The notes under the pieces were generated by a model. That model saw only the letters and a program-made list of their open reading frames with translations, searched no databases and was not told the origin of the DNA. Below, piece by piece: positions 1,021-7,499 of a stretch of DNA of 7,499 nt. This stretch comes from a virus (taxonomy: Duplodnaviria; Heunggongvirae; Uroviricota; Caudoviricetes), in IMG/VR virus record IMGVR_UViG_2671180433_000015; one strand, 5' to 3'. Position 1 is the first letter of the stretch. Every line of letters starts with the position of its first letter. The position numbers and the translations under genes are program-made.

Positions 1021-1092
1021 AGTAAAAATGTACTGAAGTCAATGACGTGCCATCACAGTTAAAATATGACAGACTCTATTTACGTAGAGATG

Positions 1093-1971
1093 TCAGACTG
1101 CAAGATCCAAGGGAAGATCAGAAATATCCTTTAATCTTTTACCATTAACCATCACGGAAAGCATGTCAGCTGCATCGCTGAGCCCCAGTATTTCAACTGC
1201 TGATATAAGTTCATAAAGCGCAAAATGATACACGCAATCTATATCACCAGTACCAAGAGCAATAGACGCCAGACGACTTGGAGTAGGCTCAGCAGTAACA
1301 ACCATTACATGAGGGAGATTTCCCTTACGGTTGCGAATAAGATTTAATGCCTCAGAACGAGCATTCTGGGCCCGGTCGCTTCTTATTGTCCATTTGCAGG
1401 AAATACTTGCGTGTAATATTGGTTTCCCACCATTCGAACTCCTGAGAGCTGACATGCGGGTAACAGAATCATCCACCAGTAATTCAGGACTGTTGATAAC
1501 TTGATCACATTCAGGTTCTCTTTCAACAATAATATCTGGTGAAATCGTATAATCACTCCCCAGTGCAGCAGCTAGCTGAGGATTACTTTTTGCAGCACTA
1601 TCCAATGCTATAAGATGGGCATATTGTTCATATTTAGCTATCTCTAATCTGTTTCTACCAGAAACCTGATGTACATTCCATTTTCCAGGGCGTAAGTGGC
1701 TGAGTTTAAAAAAGGTTTTTTCTATAAACTCTGCGCAGATACTCTCAAACTGATTACCAGATGTTTGCCCTGCAACACGTTCACCAATCGTTTCAGCCTG
1801 CAAGAAGCGAGCAATTTCTCTTGCTATAGCTTTACTGTTTTTGTTACTGCTATCTGCGTTACTAACAACTCCGGCAGTATTAATTGTGAGCGTATTCAGT
1901 AACAATTGGGCATGAAACTCCTTTCTGGCTTCAGCAAAACCAACTATGCTGTCAACCAAATCTCCATTCAT
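1093..1971 (-). CDS. Putative Type II restriction endonuclease, NgoMIV/Cfr10I-like class (292 aa)
   Basis: Track ORF 1093..2106 trimmed to ATG 1971-1969 (MNGDLVDS...). That start lies 13 nt after the methyltransferase TGA stop (1987-1985) and 9 nt after a GAAGGA SD. Motifs, numbered from this start: SPD146, S191-C-K193, E208, and R197-S-D199-R200 four residues after the lysine. This matches the non-classical PD...SxK...E active site plus R-x-D-R recognition element as I recall it for NgoMIV, Cfr10I, Bse634I and SgrAI. Co-oriented with and immediately downstream of a C5-methyltransferase. Confidence 0.6.
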   Translation of the reverse strand: MNGDLVDSIVGFAEARKEFHAQLLLNTLTINTAGVVSNADSSNKNSKAIAREIARFLQAETIGERVAGQTSGNQFESICAEFIEKTFFKLSHLRPGKWNVHQVSGRNRLEIAKYEQYAHLIALDSAAKSNPQLAAALGSDYTISPDIIVEREPECDQVINSPELLVDDSVTRMSALRSSNGGKPILHASISCKWTIRSDRAQNARSEALNLIRNRKGNLPHVMVVTAEPTPSRLASIALGTGDIDCVYHFALYELISAVEILGLSDAADMLSVMVNGKRLKDISDLPLDLAV

Positions 1972-1984
1972 TTCTGGATTTCCT

Positions 1985-3109
1985 TCAGGCTGCTTGACTA
2001 TTCTTACTGATGTTATTCTTATACCGTCCCTGCAAAACTCCATACACATATTGTGCGATTTTTGCCGCAAATAGCGGTGGAACAGCATTCCCGATCTGCT
2101 TTGCAATCTCAGTTTTTGAACCGGTAAAAATGAAATTATCAGGAAAAGACATTAATCTCGCTGCCTCACGATGAGTTATTGGCCGATCCTCTTCCGGATG
2201 TAAATATCGCCCTTTCTCCGGTTTGAAAAACTCAGTACGAATCGTTACTGAAGGTTTGTCCCACCACAGACGTCCAAACAAATCGGTCCCTCCAGATTTC
2301 TTTTTTAGCCAGCACGCCGGGGTTATATCAGGTCTTTTTTTCTGTAAATCGAAACGGTTACCTCCTGGTGGAACCGCTTTATATCGCTCCAGAGAAACAG
2401 GAGTGGGATTACGCCCAAAATGTAAGTTCAGCGGAGGAAGTTCATTACGAATATCAGTTCCAACAGGAGCAGGTAAGTCACCAATTGCATCACGCGTACA
2501 GACCCATTCAGGCAAAGCGACATCCTTATCAGGGGAACGATGCGTTGGTGCTGGCGGGAACGCCGGAATACTATGCACATCGAAGAGTTCTCGTTTGATA
2601 CCGATTGCTATCGTTCGTTTTCTTGTCTGAGGTACTCCATAGTCAGCAGTATTCAACACCATTGGATTAAGCAGAATAAAGCCCATGGATTTCGCTCTAA
2701 ACGTAATGTCCGCAAACTCATCGCTTATCAGCAATCCGGGGACATTTTCCATGACGAACATACAAGCCCTTGAACGCTCAATGACATCCATATAAGGCTC
2801 CCACAATGCTCTTCGGTGATCACCATAACGATTCTTATTCAATAAACTGAATCCCTGACACGGGGGGCCACCTATGACCACATCAGCCTCAGGAACAGTA
2901 TTGCTGGATGCCCACTCCTCAATATTTGCCTGAACTCCATGCAAACCAAAATTGGCATTGTAGGTATTTATAGCTGCAGCATTATTATCAATAGCAAGGA
3001 TACTTTCAAAGTAGTCAGACATCTCTCCATGAAGAAAACCATAAGATAATCCACCTGCCCCACAAAAGAGGTCTATCACTCTGAATTTATTTAATTCTTT
3101 CATCCGCAT
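1985..3109 (-). CDS. DNA (cytosine-5)-methyltransferase (374 aa)
   Basis: Canonical m5C-MTase motifs in order: I DLFCGAGGLSYGF (FxGxGG), IV GGPPCQGFS (catalytic PCQ), VI ENVPGL (ENV), VIII QTRKR, IX REAARLMSFPDNFIF, X QIGNAVPP. About 150 aa between motifs VIII and IX forms the variable target-recognition domain. ATG at 3109 has a GAGG SD 7 nt upstream. No N-terminal HTH extension. Confidence 0.9.
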   Translation of the reverse strand: MRMKELNKFRVIDLFCGAGGLSYGFLHGEMSDYFESILAIDNNAAAINTYNANFGLHGVQANIEEWASSNTVPEADVVIGGPPCQGFSLLNKNRYGDHRRALWEPYMDVIERSRACMFVMENVPGLLISDEFADITFRAKSMGFILLNPMVLNTADYGVPQTRKRTIAIGIKRELFDVHSIPAFPPAPTHRSPDKDVALPEWVCTRDAIGDLPAPVGTDIRNELPPLNLHFGRNPTPVSLERYKAVPPGGNRFDLQKKRPDITPACWLKKKSGGTDLFGRLWWDKPSVTIRTEFFKPEKGRYLHPEEDRPITHREAARLMSFPDNFIFTGSKTEIAKQIGNAVPPLFAAKIAQYVYGVLQGRYKNNISKNSQAA

Positions 3110-3192
3110 CCATATGCCTCAGATTAATGTTGAGCGTCTTACAGGACGCGTAATGTTAACTGGGGCTTTCTCTATCTGCCTTTTGGTGTTCA

Positions 3193-3217
3193 TGCCTGAG
3201 GCAGACAGCCTCAGGCA
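3193..3217. other. Perfect 9-bp inverted repeat (stem-loop) between the QueH-like gene and the methyltransferase gene
   Basis: TGCCTGAGG (3193-3201), 7-nt loop CAGACAG, CCTCAGGCA (3209-3217). GC-rich stem. No U-tract follows on either strand, so it is not a canonical intrinsic terminator. Confidence 0.5.
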
Positions 3218-3226
3218 CCCGCAGCA

Positions 3227-3255
3227 ATTCTACTTAACTCACGTCACCTCGCCAA
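3227..3255 (-). promoter_or_regulatory. Candidate sigma70 promoter for the R-M cassette
   Basis: Minus-strand reading: -35 TTGGCG (3255-3250), 17-nt spacer, -10 TAGAAT (3232-3227). This would place the inverted repeat at about +3 to +27 of the transcript. Sequence match only. Confidence 0.25.
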
Positions 3256-3287
3256 TATGAAATCAATCAGAAAGGTGATCCATAAAA

Positions 3288-3974
3288 TCACTCCTTCTCT
3301 TCTTTTCCGTAGTGGAGTTGGCCAATTTTGATAAGAGGGCGTCCCTGAGATTTGCGGTGTAGATTGGTATCGCGCAGAGAATACACACAGCCACAATATT
3401 CCTGCTGATAGAATTTTTCGCGCTTGCTGATTTCAATCATACGGGACGAGCCGCCCTGCTTGCGCCAGTTATAATCCCAGTACACCATACCCGGATAATG
3501 CGCAACAGCTCGCCGCCCACACTCGTTAACCTGCTGCATATTTTTCCAGCGTGAAATGCCCAGTGAACTACTGATCACACTGAAACCATTTTCAGCAGCG
3601 TACAACGCTGTCCGCTCAAAACGCATGTCAAAACACATGGTACAACGGATCCCCCTCTCAGGCTCCCATTCCATTCCTTTGGCACGTTCAAACCAGTTGT
3701 CGGTGTCGTAATCAGCATCGATAAACGGCACGCCGTGTTGTTCAGCAAAGCGAATATTTTCATCCTTACGAATTAAATACTCTTTCTGAGGATGAATGTT
3801 CGGGTTGTAGAAAAAGATGGTGTAGTCGATTCCCGAGGCCTGAAGCGCCTCCATCACTTCACCGGAACATGGAGCACAGCAAGAGTGCAGTAGTAGTTTG
3901 TTTGCCCCGTTTGGAAGCTCCAATTTAGGCCGTTTGAAATCAGCAATAGTCATAAATATTTTTATTGGGGTCAT
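3288..3974 (-). CDS. QueH-like epoxyqueuosine reductase family protein (DUF208), Fe-S protein
   Basis: 228-aa track ORF. N-terminal [15 protein letters not shown] motif and C-terminal EYCGCVYS cysteines fit the conserved Cys pattern of DUF208/QueH as I recall it. An alternative ATG at 3953 would give MTIADF...; neither start has a strong SD. Confidence 0.6.
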
Positions 3975-4127
3975 GAAAATAGCACAGAGTGTAGCATCAG
4001 AGCAGGGCTATCGGGAATATATGTCTAAATCTGGTAATATCTGGTTTTGACGCAAAGCGGACAACCACGCTGGCTCTACCCTGCGCCATGAAAATGTCAA
4101 TTCACATCTGAACTAATGCTCTTTAAT

Positions 4128-4553
4128 CTAGTAACGTCTAAAATATCTAACATTTCCTTGATAAAATGCCAGTACACGCTGCATAGCTTCGCTCTTCCGG
4201 CACTCGCGACAGATTATATTCAGGCGCCTGTCGTAGCGGCGTATTTCGCCGTCTGGTAACGACCAGATAAGGTCCGGATCAACCACTGCAGGTTTCTTCA
4301 CCTTTGCCCTTGAGAGTTTTTTGCGAGCATTTTGCCAGTCCTTACGCGCCTGTTCAGACGGGAATAACCCGTAACCAGAGTTGTATACATCGCCACTGGC
4401 AACCAGCTCTCTGGCGAGAACACTCATCAGATATCTTGTCGCACCTGTCCTGGCTTCCAGTTGCCGCAACGTCTCGCGACCGCTCAGACGTACAAGTTCA
4501 ACAACCTGCCCTTTAATTTTTTCCCGCTCTTCTTGTGTAAATACTTTTGCCAT
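4128..4553 (-). CDS. Ren-like winged-helix phage protein (141 aa)
   Basis: Track ORF 4128..4568 starts at TTG; the ATG at 4553 has a GGAGG SD 7 nt upstream and lies 15 nt after the stop of the upstream gene. The C-terminal segment ICRECRKSEAMQRVLAFY and the internal ARTGAT resemble lambda Ren as I remember it (FKECRQSAAMKRVLAVY; ALTGAT). The family call is from memory and is low confidence. Confidence 0.5.
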   Translation of the reverse strand: MAKVFTQEEREKIKGQVVELVRLSGRETLRQLEARTGATRYLMSVLARELVASGDVYNSGYGLFPSEQARKDWQNARKKLSRAKVKKPAVVDPDLIWSLPDGEIRRYDRRLNIICRECRKSEAMQRVLAFYQGNVRYFRRY

Positions 4554-4568
4554 AAGCGCCTCCGGCAA

Positions 4569-5339
4569 TCACTTTTCCGATACAACACGGCGGGAAGAAT
4601 CAGTAATCTGTCGAACAATATCCCGGTGCTTGTTCAGCTCCCGCAGCGCGGCGCAGACTCGCTCCCACTTCTGAACATCACTTTTCGCCCTGCGCAGCGC
4701 CAGGTTTGCCCTGCGAAGGGACGGAAAAATCAGCTCATCTGCTTGCGTTTCGGTAAACGATGGCAACGGCTGCACAATGTCCGCCACAGTTTCTGTTTTA
4801 ATTTCTTCCTGTGTTGCGGCTTCCCGGACTGGTAACGCAGCACCTGCTGGCTGAGGAAAGGCCTTACCATCACTTTCCGTTACCAGCGCGGCTTTCGGCT
4901 CTGCTGGTAAATTATCGCCCGGCATGCAGTAACGAAATTTACCGTTCTGATTAACGCGTGCCAGCCGCCCCGTTGCGGTTACCACCGCCAGCGTGGAAGC
5001 AACCTTGCGAGTACTGACACCGAACTTACCCGCCAGTTCCTCACACGTTTTAGCCCCATCCTGACCGATAAACTCAATCATCATGTCTGCGGTAACTTTT
5101 TGTTCGACCTCCCCGGTCAGCATATCCTGTGCTTCAGATTTTACTGGCCGCTCTTCGGTTACCCGGGATTCACCTTCGCCAGCCAGAAACCAGGTGTGAC
5201 CAGTTTTATCAACGACGCCTTTTCTTTTGAGTTCCCACAGCTCGTTGACAGCCTCTTCACGACTGATTCCAAGGCGAGCTGCCACCACATGTGAAGAGGC
5301 TTTTTTCAGTGCTTTCAGTGCGTCAGATACGGTTTCCAT
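4569..5339 (-). CDS. Phage hypothetical protein with two winged-helix-like repeats (256 aa)
   Basis: ATG 5339 with GGAGG SD 8 nt upstream. Two internally similar segments (VVAARLGISREEAVNELWELKRKGVVDKTGHTWFLA and CEELAGKFGVSTRKVASTLAVVTATGRLARVNQNGKFRY) look like HTH or winged-helix DNA-binding units. Sits between the helicase loader and the Ren-like gene. Confidence 0.7.
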   Translation of the reverse strand: METVSDALKALKKASSHVVAARLGISREEAVNELWELKRKGVVDKTGHTWFLAGEGESRVTEERPVKSEAQDMLTGEVEQKVTADMMIEFIGQDGAKTCEELAGKFGVSTRKVASTLAVVTATGRLARVNQNGKFRYCMPGDNLPAEPKAALVTESDGKAFPQPAGAALPVREAATQEEIKTETVADIVQPLPSFTETQADELIFPSLRRANLALRRAKSDVQKWERVCAALRELNKHRDIVRQITDSSRRVVSEK

Positions 5340-5360
5340 TAAAATTTCCTCCGGACAAAA

Positions 5361-6107
5361 TTACTTCACAACCCTCATATTGCTGACATTTGGACGCCAG
5401 CTATCCCAGTTAAACGTCACCCATCGACCACCGTTCATGGTCATGCGGTCCATAATCCTCTCACCAAGAAGCGTACTCATTGCGGCATGATTCAGGTTTG
5501 TTAACATCCCGACACTGCACAGTGATGCTGTCCGGCGATCAATTATCTGGTGCAATACCACCTGCTCGTTTTTCGTCTCCCGCTGAACGCCTATTTCATC
5601 CAGGACCAGCAAATCAACCCCGCAAAGCTCCTGTAAAAATTTTTCCCCGGATTTGCCGTTGTCGTAGCTGTCATGCAACACGCTCATGACGTCAGACACG
5701 GTGACGATAATCACGCTGCGCCCCTTCACCATCAGCCGGTTGCCCATCGCCGCTGCAAGGTGATTTTTCCCGGTGCCGGTTTTACCGCTGAACACAAAAT
5801 TCGTGCACCCGGTCATCAGTTCGTCAGCTATGGATTTGGCCTGGCTCAGCGCGTATTTTTGCCCGTCGTTCTGCACCTGATAATTTGCAAACGAGCATTT
5901 GCTGTGCAGAGGCTGGATGCCCGAACGATTCAGGATTTTTTCCACCCGCAACTGGCGATTCTGGCGGTTAATCTCCTCGCTGCGTTTTCGTCCTTCAGCA
6001 AGTTGCCATTCCCGCCACTCCTCCACCGTCCGGTACGGTGGAACCGACCCCTGTGGTGCAAGTCTGCGAATACGTTCAAGAACCCCAACTGCCGCAATGT
6101 TTTTCAT
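5361..6107 (-). CDS. DnaC-family replicative helicase loader (AAA+ ATPase, IstB-like), 248 aa
   Basis: Walker A GKTGTGKNHLAAA and Walker B DLLVLDEIG. Extended collinear similarity to E. coli DnaC as I recall it (NRSGI.PLH..CSF.NY, TGMLTN, LLGER.MDRM, FNWDS.R). ATG 6107 lies 6 nt after the stop of the upstream initiator gene. Confidence 0.9.
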   Translation of the reverse strand: MKNIAAVGVLERIRRLAPQGSVPPYRTVEEWREWQLAEGRKRSEEINRQNRQLRVEKILNRSGIQPLHSKCSFANYQVQNDGQKYALSQAKSIADELMTGCTNFVFSGKTGTGKNHLAAAMGNRLMVKGRSVIIVTVSDVMSVLHDSYDNGKSGEKFLQELCGVDLLVLDEIGVQRETKNEQVVLHQIIDRRTASLCSVGMLTNLNHAAMSTLLGERIMDRMTMNGGRWVTFNWDSWRPNVSNMRVVK

Positions 6108-6113
6108 GACACG

Positions 6114-7076
6114 TCACCCCCTGAATCCCGGCGGTATTTCAGTGTCCGGTTCAGAAATGTGATTCACGCAACGCTGCGCAGGCGAACGCCCCAGGCGGAT
6201 AACCAGTTCATCCCATTTTTCCCGGAGTTTTGCCGGACTCATGATGTTTTTTACCCAGAACGAATCCCGCTGGAGACGCCCAAACATTTCACAAATTTGT
6301 CTGTGAGTTCTGCCATCCAGCATCCGCATTGTGCGAACGTCATTGGCCCATGCTGTCCAGTTGGGTTCTTTCGGTCTAGTGATCTCGCCATCATAGCTGG
6401 CCGCCTGCTCGTAAAGACTCACGATTCGTCCCCAGATCCACTGTGCGCACACCAAATCTTCCTGACTTCCCCACTGGCGTTTTTTCGCACTGAACACAAC
6501 CGCGTCAGGGTGTCGGGTTAAAAAATCCTGTTCAGCCGTCTGCGGGTCCGGTTGCGAAGCGTCCGGACAAGAAGATCTTTTATCTGACGGATCAGGTTTT
6601 AATACTGACGGATCGGGGTCAATCATCGCCCCCCTAATCGGCAGTTTTTTATCAACAGTTGATCCATCAAAATTTGACGGGTCAACCGTTGAGGGGGCAA
6701 TATTTGACGGGTCAACTGTTAACGGGTCATTTTTTGCCGGGCTAATTTTTCTTTTCGGTTTATATGACTCACGCGCCGCCGCCGCAGCTGCTTCGAGTTT
6801 TTCCACATTAAGCCGATAGATATTGCTTACATTACGCCCACCGACCTTACGCTCTTCCTTCGTCAGCCAGCCCTCTTTCGCCAGTTCTGCAATAGCCGAT
6901 TTCACTGTGGATTCACTTCTTGCACCGATCTGACGCCGGATAGTTTCAATGGCAGGCCATGACACGCCCTCGTCATTGCTGTAGTCTGCAAGACGGGCCA
7001 TAACCGCCACCCTGGATAAGATCATGCCGGTGAAGGCGCACCCTTCCCAGACAAGACCATGAAGCTTGCTGCTCAT
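6114..7076 (-). CDS. Phage replication initiator (lambda O-like, N-terminal HTH) with DnaT-like C-terminal tail, 320 aa
   Basis: Track ORF 6114..7091 starts at GTG; the ATG at 7076 is preceded by a GGGGG SD. N-terminal HTH-like region (LSRVAVMARLADYSNDEGVSWPAIETIRRQIGARSESTVKSAIAELAKEGWL). Central Pro/Asp/Ser-rich repeats are encoded by the iteron array. C-terminus ...SEPDTEIPPGFRG resembles the C-terminus of E. coli DnaT as I recall it. Operon arrangement mirrors dnaT-dnaC. Confidence 0.85.
   Translation of the reverse strand: MSSKLHGLVWEGCAFTGMILSRVAVMARLADYSNDEGVSWPAIETIRRQIGARSESTVKSAIAELAKEGWLTKEERKVGGRNVSNIYRLNVEKLEAAAAAARESYKPKRKISPAKNDPLTVDPSNIAPSTVDPSNFDGSTVDKKLPIRGAMIDPDPSVLKPDPSDKRSSCPDASQPDPQTAEQDFLTRHPDAVVFSAKKRQWGSQEDLVCAQWIWGRIVSLYEQAASYDGEITRPKEPNWTAWANDVRTMRMLDGRTHRQICEMFGRLQRDSFWVKNIMSPAKLREKWDELVIRLGRSPAQRCVNHISEPDTEIPPGFRG
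6584..6770. repeat. Iteron array plus adjacent AT-rich tract inside the initiator gene (putative phage origin of replication)
   Basis: Direct repeats built on TGACGG(G/A)TCA at 6585, 6606, 6675 and 6705, plus a partial copy at 6722. Repeats 3 and 4 are near-identical 20-mers (TTTGACGGGTCAACCGTTGA and TTTGACGGGTCAACTGTTAA). A related palindromic TCAACAGTTGA lies at about 6652-6662. AT-rich stretch 6728-6770 (CATTTTTTGCCGGGCTAATTTTTCTTTTCGGTTTATATGACTC). Confidence 0.55.
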
Positions 7077-7098
7077 AAAACCCCCGAACACCGTGCTT

Positions 7099-7308
7099 TT
7101 AGTGCATCACCACAGCATTCCCTGCCGGGCCGCCGCGATTCATCTGGTCATACAAAACAACCGCTGACGCAACAAAATCATCGACATCCTTCACCAGCCG
7201 ATCCCTCCGTTCGACGATCTCACGGTAATATTCAGAACTGTGGCTGCGCATACGGGCCACCAGCAAAGGCGGCATCGCCTTTTCGATCGCCGGTAACAGA
7301 GCCTGCAT
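7099..7308 (-). CDS. Small hypothetical protein (69 aa) immediately upstream of the initiator gene
   Basis: Track ORF; ATG at 7308, stop 22 nt before the initiator ATG. No clear SD. The same frame stays open up to the stop of the upstream gene (7411-7413) with no alternative ATG/GTG start. Confidence 0.4.
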   Translation of the reverse strand: MQALLPAIEKAMPPLLVARMRSHSSEYYREIVERRDRLVKDVDDFVASAVVLYDQMNRGGPAGNAVVMH

Positions 7309-7410
7309 TTTTTCAACAGCATCAGGGGTGTCTTTCTCTACCCAGCGGAAAATTTTCTGGGTATTGCGAGCCAGGGCTTCCGGATGGCTGTCGTCGGTGA
7401 TGCTGCCAAC

Positions 7411-7499
7411 TTACTGATTTAGTGTATGATGGTGTTTTTGAGGTGCTCCAGTGGCTTCTGTTTCTATCAGCTGTCCCTCCTGTTCAGCTACTGACGGGG
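7411..7499 (-). CDS. C-terminal end of an unidentified gene; partial, start lies beyond the window end
   Basis: Only one minus-strand frame is open across 7414-7499 (...PSVAEQEGQLIETEATGAPQKHHHTLNQ, stop TAA 7413-7411). No other support. Confidence 0.25.
   Translation of the reverse strand, partial: PSVAEQEGQLIETEATGAPQKHHHTLNQ

Follow-up and report, generated by a model that had tools for sequence, protein, structure and literature searches.

The question raised by this locus is whether a prophage gene at positions 3288-3974 of the window (that is, the whole stretch of DNA that was analysed, 7,499 nt in length) encodes a QueH-like Fe-S enzyme, as the original prediction had it, and, if so, what such an enzyme would do in E. 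coli, where QueG acts at the same step. [quoted passage not shown] In this species the conversion of oQ to Q is cobalamin-dependent and K-12 queG knock-outs accumulate oQ (PMC4646009), QueG being counted among the cobamide-dependent enzymes of E. coli (PMC11841063).

Coding sequence and cysteine motifs

The longest ORF at 3288-3974 of the window is read from the minus strand and codes for 228 aa. The real coding sequence, however, is most likely 3288-3953 (-), of 221 aa, and not the one that begins at 3974, because the ATG at 3974 is replaced by ATT in the natural allele of strain GF47 while the ATG at 3953 is invariant; the latter is also the start used by the chromosomal homologues and by PGAP. 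We looked for a Shine-Dalgarno sequence before both ATGs (3974 and 3953) and found none.

Both of the cysteine motifs described in the original prediction are real: in the 228-aa ORF, HSCCAPCS lies near the N-terminus, within residues 27-40, and the CGC cluster belongs to EYCGCVYS at residues 192-199. A third pair in the middle of the protein, CTMC, had been passed over. Numbered on the 221-aa protein and supported by an alignment of 34 diverse members of the family, the N-terminal metal-ligand motif CCAPC (C25-C26-A-P-C29) is encoded at 3867-3881 (-), the CxxC pair (C104-T-M-C107) at 3633-3644 (-) and the CGC motif (C187-G-C189), in which C187, G188 and C189 are all invariant, at 3387-3395 (-).

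Membership of the QueH family

The profile search bore out the family assignment. Pfam PF02677 (QueH, formerly DUF208) matched the window protein with an E-value of 1.1e-65 and 221.5 bits, over profile positions 1-174 of 175 and against a curated cut-off of 23.5 bits, and the solved T. maritima QueH (PDB 7lc5) matched it with an E-value of 7.8e-22 (residues 27-203 against 4-178), at 33% identity. PHROG 3217 was matched as well, its label in PHROGs being 'unknown function'. None of the NCBIfam HMMs matched the window QueH, which is a matter of library content and no evidence against membership. In RefSeq/PGAP the identical protein, WP_000150294.1, is named 'epoxyqueuosine reductase QueH'; the gene already has its name there, and it is no new kind of system.

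The PF02677 family comprises about 2,500 cluster representatives at E ≤ 1e-10 in a library clustered at 50% identity. We aligned the window protein with T. maritima QueH and 32 diverse cluster representatives, 35-72% identical to the window protein, hence 34 sequences in all. All 14 invariant columns are kept in the window protein: the cysteines C25, C26, C104, C107, C187 and C189, with G188, and the polar residues N52, Y59, R62, E99, R103, K137 and Q184, among which R103 adjoins the CxxC pair. C29 was present in 33 of the 34 members, the exception being T. maritima, which has Asp13 there; in the same alignment C25 corresponds to C9 of T. maritima. According to PDB titles, C9S and D13N mutant structures of T. 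maritima QueH have been deposited, so both positions have been functionally probed. Li et al. are said to have found, in 2021, that the conserved cysteines of QueH bind a [4Fe-4S] cluster plus an adjacent iron.

As a side observation, T. maritima QueH is the only solved structure of the family, and it carries Asp13 where 33 of the 34 aligned members have Cys; its metal-site model may therefore not represent most of the family.

An AlphaFold2 model, built from 32 homologues, had a mean pLDDT of 79.6 and a pTM of 0.81. The first five Foldseek ranks in the PDB were all QueH (TM-score 0.85-0.87 when normalised to the target, rmsd 2.1-2.6 A), and the next matches, with far weaker scores, were the [4Fe-4S] tRNA thiolases TtuA and NcsA of the same superfamily. 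The predicted fold is thus adenine-nucleotide-alpha-hydrolase-like and superposes on solved QueH. Given the full-length Pfam match, the match to 7lc5, the superposition of the model and the invariant residues, the window gene is, as far as sequence and model can tell, a genuine and intact QueH, and its enzyme class is firm.

Prophage setting

The window's genes all share the minus strand and follow one another, as transcribed, in this order: a CII-like fragment (7099-7308), an O-like replisome organiser (6114-7091), a DnaC-like loader (5361-6107), a DUF1627 gene (4569-5339), the DUF977/Ren-like gene that is the constant upstream neighbour of queH (4128-4568; Pfam PF06163, phrog_142), queH itself, a C5 cytosine DNA methyltransferase of a type II R-M system (1985-3109; Pfam PF00145 with 184.6 bits, TIGR00675, PADLOC MTase_II), an NgoMIV-family type II restriction endonuclease (1093-1971 from the PGAP start, in an ORF that reaches 2106; Pfam PF09015 with 422 bits, PADLOC REase_II with 417 bits) and a small ORF (650-922), after which related prophages have a DUF968 gene. 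With lambdoid genes upstream and the methyltransferase and endonuclease downstream, the proposed location on a prophage, beside an R-M cassette, is confirmed.

A prophage of E. coli O39:NM strain F8704-2, integrated beside rspB/ynfA and annotated from the integrase to the tail fibres and type III effectors, shares 98% identity with the window region; the best full-length match of the window was an O111:H11 strain, at 99.7%. Beyond the tail fibres, the F8704-2 prophage carries genes for a NleG-like protein and a HECT-type E3 ligase and an nleC fragment (locus L094, 17960-21330), so it is an effector-carrying lambdoid prophage of an attaching-effacing type strain. It also carries two tRNA-Arg genes and one tRNA-Ile gene (locus L001, 13459-13708), none of them of the Q family; a tRNA search of the window found none. 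At the other end, the last 105 bases of the window (7395-7499) belong to the end of an IS1 element and are 100% identical to IS1A/IS1B termini found on numerous plasmids and chromosomes. The IS1 is inserted just past the CII-like/YdaT-like region, and the closest genomes are colinear with the window only up to 7395.

Distribution in E. coli genomes and phages

DNA of queH was found in 995 of 5426 complete E. coli genomes (about 18%), at 90-100% identity and nearly always in a single copy, and 985 genomes had it intact over 80% or more of its length. Only 47 genomes contained 80% or more of the window as a whole. As for queG, it was present in 5426 of the 5426 genomes, in agreement with the earlier statement that E. 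coli normally uses QueG; prophage queH would hence be a second enzyme for the step and not a replacement.

Wherever we inspected the context (in an ST131 isolate, a derivative of E. coli B, strains E597 and GF47, and phage HannyBb), queH lay downstream of the DUF977 gene. As a rule no other intact gene stood between the two; some loci have a methyltransferase fragment or a small ORF on the opposite strand there. The elements that host queH are Qin/Rac-type lambdoid prophages, and what follows it is variable: hokD, a Kiwa KwaB-like pair, a DUF1971 gene or the R-M cassette.

Among deposited phage genomes, tblastn found QueH in 25 of 50,697 records. One of them is a named E. coli phage, HannyBb, and the others are either metagenomic records, short and unannotated, or 'phage' records of very large size, which are possibly bacterial. 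This rarity is consistent with the finding of Hutinet et al. 2019 (PMC6884629) that the viruses analysed there had no QueA, QueG or QueH homologue. The gene had been called unusual cargo, and so it is for deposited phages, but in the prophages of E. coli it is common and, as said, already named. Our literature search for prophage-borne QueH returned only author-name false matches, general mentions of the pathway and queG.

The prophage of the E. coli B derivative, strain B-DidR, has a queH allele (locus L004, 5990-6655) with 96% amino acid identity to that of the window. This prophage, a Qin-like one, is decayed: IS3 has inserted into it, and its tail and DUF968 genes are truncated. It retains queH. 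Since an E. coli B derivative carries the gene, B-lineage laboratory strains may, in contrast to K-12, be able to finish queuosine when B12 is absent.

Origin and selection

Outside Escherichia, the closest proteins were those of Scandinavium (92% identical), Kluyvera (91%), Enterobacter (88-90%) and Erwinia (86%), while the DNA identity to the queH genes of Erwinia, Providencia and Photorhabdus was 76%. These genes have ordinary chromosomal neighbours, such as purL and glrK in Erwinia, tmcA and purC in Providencia and benE in Photorhabdus; in other chromosomes the neighbours are dehydrogenases, Hcp, a DeoR regulator, a glycosyl hydrolase, icd and GGDEF/EAL proteins. We also tested for lambdoid neighbours in 80 species-representative loci, and only E. 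albertii, whose QueH is 100% identical, has them. The comparison indicates that the prophage gene is derived from chromosomal queH genes outside phages.

Synteny among the chromosomal copies is too poor for any one donor to be named: any of the neighbours tested (purL/glrK, tmcA/purC, benE) was present in only 6 of the 80 species loci. QueH of Sphingomonas, Paracoccus, Rhizobium, Stenotrophomonas and Neisseriaceae is still 75-80% identical to the window protein. Such high identity across distant Proteobacteria, together with the poor conservation of the neighbour genes, hints at frequent horizontal movement of queH as a single gene.

The minimal cassette common to different prophage backbones is 3284-4002 (-), which consists of the gene, 4 nt downstream of it and 49 nt upstream of the 3953 ATG. 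Precisely, in blastn comparisons of the window with E. coli GF47, E. coli B, E597 and phage HannyBb, the homology around queH stopped at 3282-3284 on one side and at 4002-4069 on the other. As for how the cassette arose, a Qin/Rac-like lambdoid lineage of Escherichia most likely acquired it from a relative's chromosome within the Enterobacteriaceae, as queH with probably its own extended -10 promoter, and it sits between the replication/Ren-like module and the nin region.

Between prophage alleles, which lie on different prophage backbones, dN/dS was 0.03-0.09 at dS up to 0.49, and therefore the gene has been under strong, long-standing purifying selection in the prophage setting. This bears on the possibility that queH is a functionless passenger in E. 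coli, carried along on a successful prophage backbone. The gene does duplicate the step of QueG, and it does lack a Shine-Dalgarno sequence, as a passenger might; but the dN/dS values contradict this view, the ORF is intact in the 985 genomes given above, and the cassette 3284-4002 is retained while the genes flanking it vary. We hence consider a passenger very unlikely, and a gene kept for its function the better account.

The R-M cassette and the slot downstream of queH

The R-M cassette occupies about 1022-3115 of the window, where ST131 prophages, and most of the related ones, have hokD instead. The ST131 locus examined is colinear with the window at 3116-7395 (99.5% identity) and at 1-1021 (85.5%), and between the two colinear blocks it has about 290 bp with hokD; the R-M cassette is thus a separate insertion that replaces hokD. 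Among 80 IMG/VR prophage loci with identical QueH, hokD was the next gene in 56 and the R-M methyltransferase in 21. The adjacency of R-M and queH is incidental, and the methyltransferase is not functionally linked to queH.

The junction still bears a trace of the replaced gene. The Rfam sok antitoxin family RF01794 matched the window at 3040-3220 (-) with 61 bits, against a gathering score of 59, and the match runs across the cassette junction and takes in the beginning of the methyltransferase gene, so that the cassette seems to have replaced the coding part of hokD and to have kept hok/sok leader sequence. Inside this sok-like match, between the queH stop and the methyltransferase start, there is a perfect 8-bp inverted repeat (3196-3222, CCTGAGGC-agaca-GCCTCAGG), which is not a canonical terminator because no T-run follows it on either strand. 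In E. coli E597, the slot after queH holds a Kiwa KwaB-like gene and its partner (locus L007, 4153-5792; also hit H32). With Kiwa, hokD or R-M found there, the slot behaves as a variable defence-cargo site in Qin/Rac-like prophages.

Such a neighbourhood could be read as a sign that QueH itself takes part in defence or counter-defence together with R-M, Kiwa or hok, for instance by altering the Q-family tRNAs that anticodon nucleases target. The slot that would suggest this lies just downstream of queH and is filled in a strain-dependent way, yet it is the downstream partner that varies and the queH cassette that stays constant. Moreover, QueH matched none of the PADLOC defence models, only the neighbouring methyltransferase and endonuclease matching type II R-M models, and its closest homologues are single genes in ordinary chromosomal contexts. 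We regard a defence role as highly improbable.

The second of the two roles originally offered, an action of QueH on 7-deazaguanine in phage or host DNA and not on tRNA, would also draw on the adjoining R-M cassette and on the defence genes that the slot holds in other strains, and phages are known to put 7-deazaguanines into DNA (PMC6884629). However, the partner genes are missing. No DpdA/QueC-type gene was found among the window proteins in searches of Pfam, NCBIfam and PHROGs, as the original prediction had stated, and inspection of the flanking prophage in the F8704-2 annotation, for which dpdA or queC-like genes had been suggested as targets, gave no dpdA/tgt-like gene and no queA, queC, queD, queE or folE. 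To our knowledge no oQ-type base is known in DNA, and the window protein is 86-92% identical to QueH proteins from ordinary chromosomal neighbourhoods. The survey of Hutinet et al. (PMC6884629), in addition, had no QueH linked to DNA-modification clusters. The role on DNA is extremely unlikely in our judgement, and it is the first of the two roles, that in tRNA queuosine, which the evidence favours.

Transcription of queH

A putative extended -10 element, TGCTACACT, lies at 3988-3996 (-) and ends 34 nt upstream of the 3953 ATG. Its GCTAC core was invariant in the 8 sequences aligned, and 6 of the 8 had the form TGCTACA(C/A)T, with its distance to the ATG unchanged; it is present in divergent prophage alleles and before the chromosomal queH genes of Scandinavium, Kluyvera, Enterobacter and Erwinia, while the sequence flanking it was not conserved. 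Of 77 species loci, 23 have TGnTAnnnT in the 80 nt upstream, whereas shuffling gave it in 7.6% of sequences, and among close enterobacterial relatives the motif stood 33-40 nt from the start. This conservation suggests that TGCTACACT is a candidate promoter of the gene's own, which would enable expression in the lysogen.

We also ran a generic scan for sigma-70 promoters and terminators on 2900-4700, which reported no minus-strand promoter upstream of queH and no terminator. That scan demands a match to the -35 box, whereas an extended -10 promoter needs none, and TGCTACACT is accordingly absent from its output. With the generic scan negative, the proposal of an own promoter draws on comparative conservation, and, there being neither promoter nor terminator in the scan, queH could be read mainly from the phage early-right transcript instead of in the lysogen.

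Read in that way, the enzyme might serve the phage: transcription of the early-right operon after induction or infection would raise Q and tune phage or host-response translation during lytic growth. It fits with this that queH continues the row of O-like, DnaC-like, DUF1627 and DUF977 genes on the same strand, that no terminator separates them, and that in Shewanella, according to a preprint, phage infection induces queG and shifts oQ to Q. Prophage genes have, on the other hand, no excess of NAU codons (NAU fraction 0.58 in early and 0.53 in late genes, against 0.61 in a small host sample); queH is kept in degraded, cryptic Qin-like prophages, e.g. that of E. coli B, as fits a benefit to the host; and its own conserved promoter-like motif argues for expression independent of the phage operon. 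A service to the phage, which is compatible with our main explanation, seems to us rather unlikely, and expression in the lysogen would be driven from the gene's own putative promoter.

Probable function in tRNA

The main reading, then, is that the prophage QueH acts as a cobalamin-independent epoxyqueuosine reductase and converts oQ to Q in host tRNA; to this predicted activity we assign a probability of roughly 0.8. The enzyme would use its iron-sulfur centre for this conversion, and its substrates would be the tRNAs for Asn, Asp, His and Tyr, each modified at wobble position 34. The genes tgt and queA, whose part of the pathway supplies oQ-tRNA, are present in E. coli, and the species has no de novo synthesis of cobalamin. 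QueH is reported to need no B12, in what Zallot et al. are said to have described in 2017. Because QueG needs cobalamin and E. coli cannot make it, the prophage QueH probably lets the lysogen finish Q when B12 is scarce or when QueG is not working. Whether this B12-independent completion of Q is the benefit under selection we would put at even odds.

In broader terms, prophage queH might represent a lysogenic conversion of the tRNA epitranscriptome in about 1 in 5 E. coli strains, ST131 isolates and the E. coli B derivative included, an extension for which we see the chances as evenly divided. If it holds, strains with a cryptic or active prophage of this kind would complete Q independently of cobalamin and of QueG, and strains would differ in oQ versus Q under B12 limitation, e.g. 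in gut, urine or minimal media, with possible effects on the translation of NAU/NAC codons, on Q-linked phenotypes and on how tRNA-modification data from K-12 are read against those of other strains. If the enzyme is active, common clinical strains and the E. coli B derivative would differ from K-12 in B12-free completion of queuosine and would be an uncomplicated natural setting in which to ask whether Q and oQ have different physiological effects; PHROG 3217 would gain a function. What has been under-noticed is that a phage-borne queH, under strong purifying selection, duplicates the step of the B12-dependent QueG in so large a share of complete E. coli genomes.

Comparison with known systems

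Compared with T. maritima QueH (7lc5, 7lc7, 9deu; PF02677, COG1636), the window protein has the same domain from end to end and the same predicted fold (TM-score 0.87, rmsd 2.1 A). It differs in having Cys29, the majority state of the family, in place of Asp13, and in a basic C-terminal tail of about 27 aa, which is absent in T. maritima and common to other gammaproteobacterial QueH proteins. With respect to known QueH in general, the window gene lies on a lambdoid prophage and not in a chromosomal neighbourhood, and it coexists with QueG instead of replacing it.

QueG has the same predicted reaction, oQ34 to Q34 in tRNA (PMC5372724), but the fold and the cofactor set of the two enzymes are unrelated, QueG needing B12 (PMC4646009) and QueH not. 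QueG is moreover core (5426 of 5426 genomes), whereas queH is accessory (995 of 5426).

With the Dpd clusters of phages (DpdA, FolE, QueD, QueE and QueC; Hutinet et al. 2019) the window gene shares the fact of being a phage-borne gene of the queuosine/deazaguanine pathway. Those clusters, however, centre on the DpdA transglycosylase and on preQ0 synthesis, and the F8704-2 prophage has none of their genes.

Finally, accessory or 'moron' genes of lambdoid phages insert between the replication and nin regions. The queH cassette is similar to them as a single gene with its own promoter-like element and a fixed insertion point, next to a slot of variable cargo. It differs from them in that no terminator was detected after the gene and in that its cargo is not a virulence, exclusion or defence factor but, by its predicted activity, a tRNA-modification enzyme.
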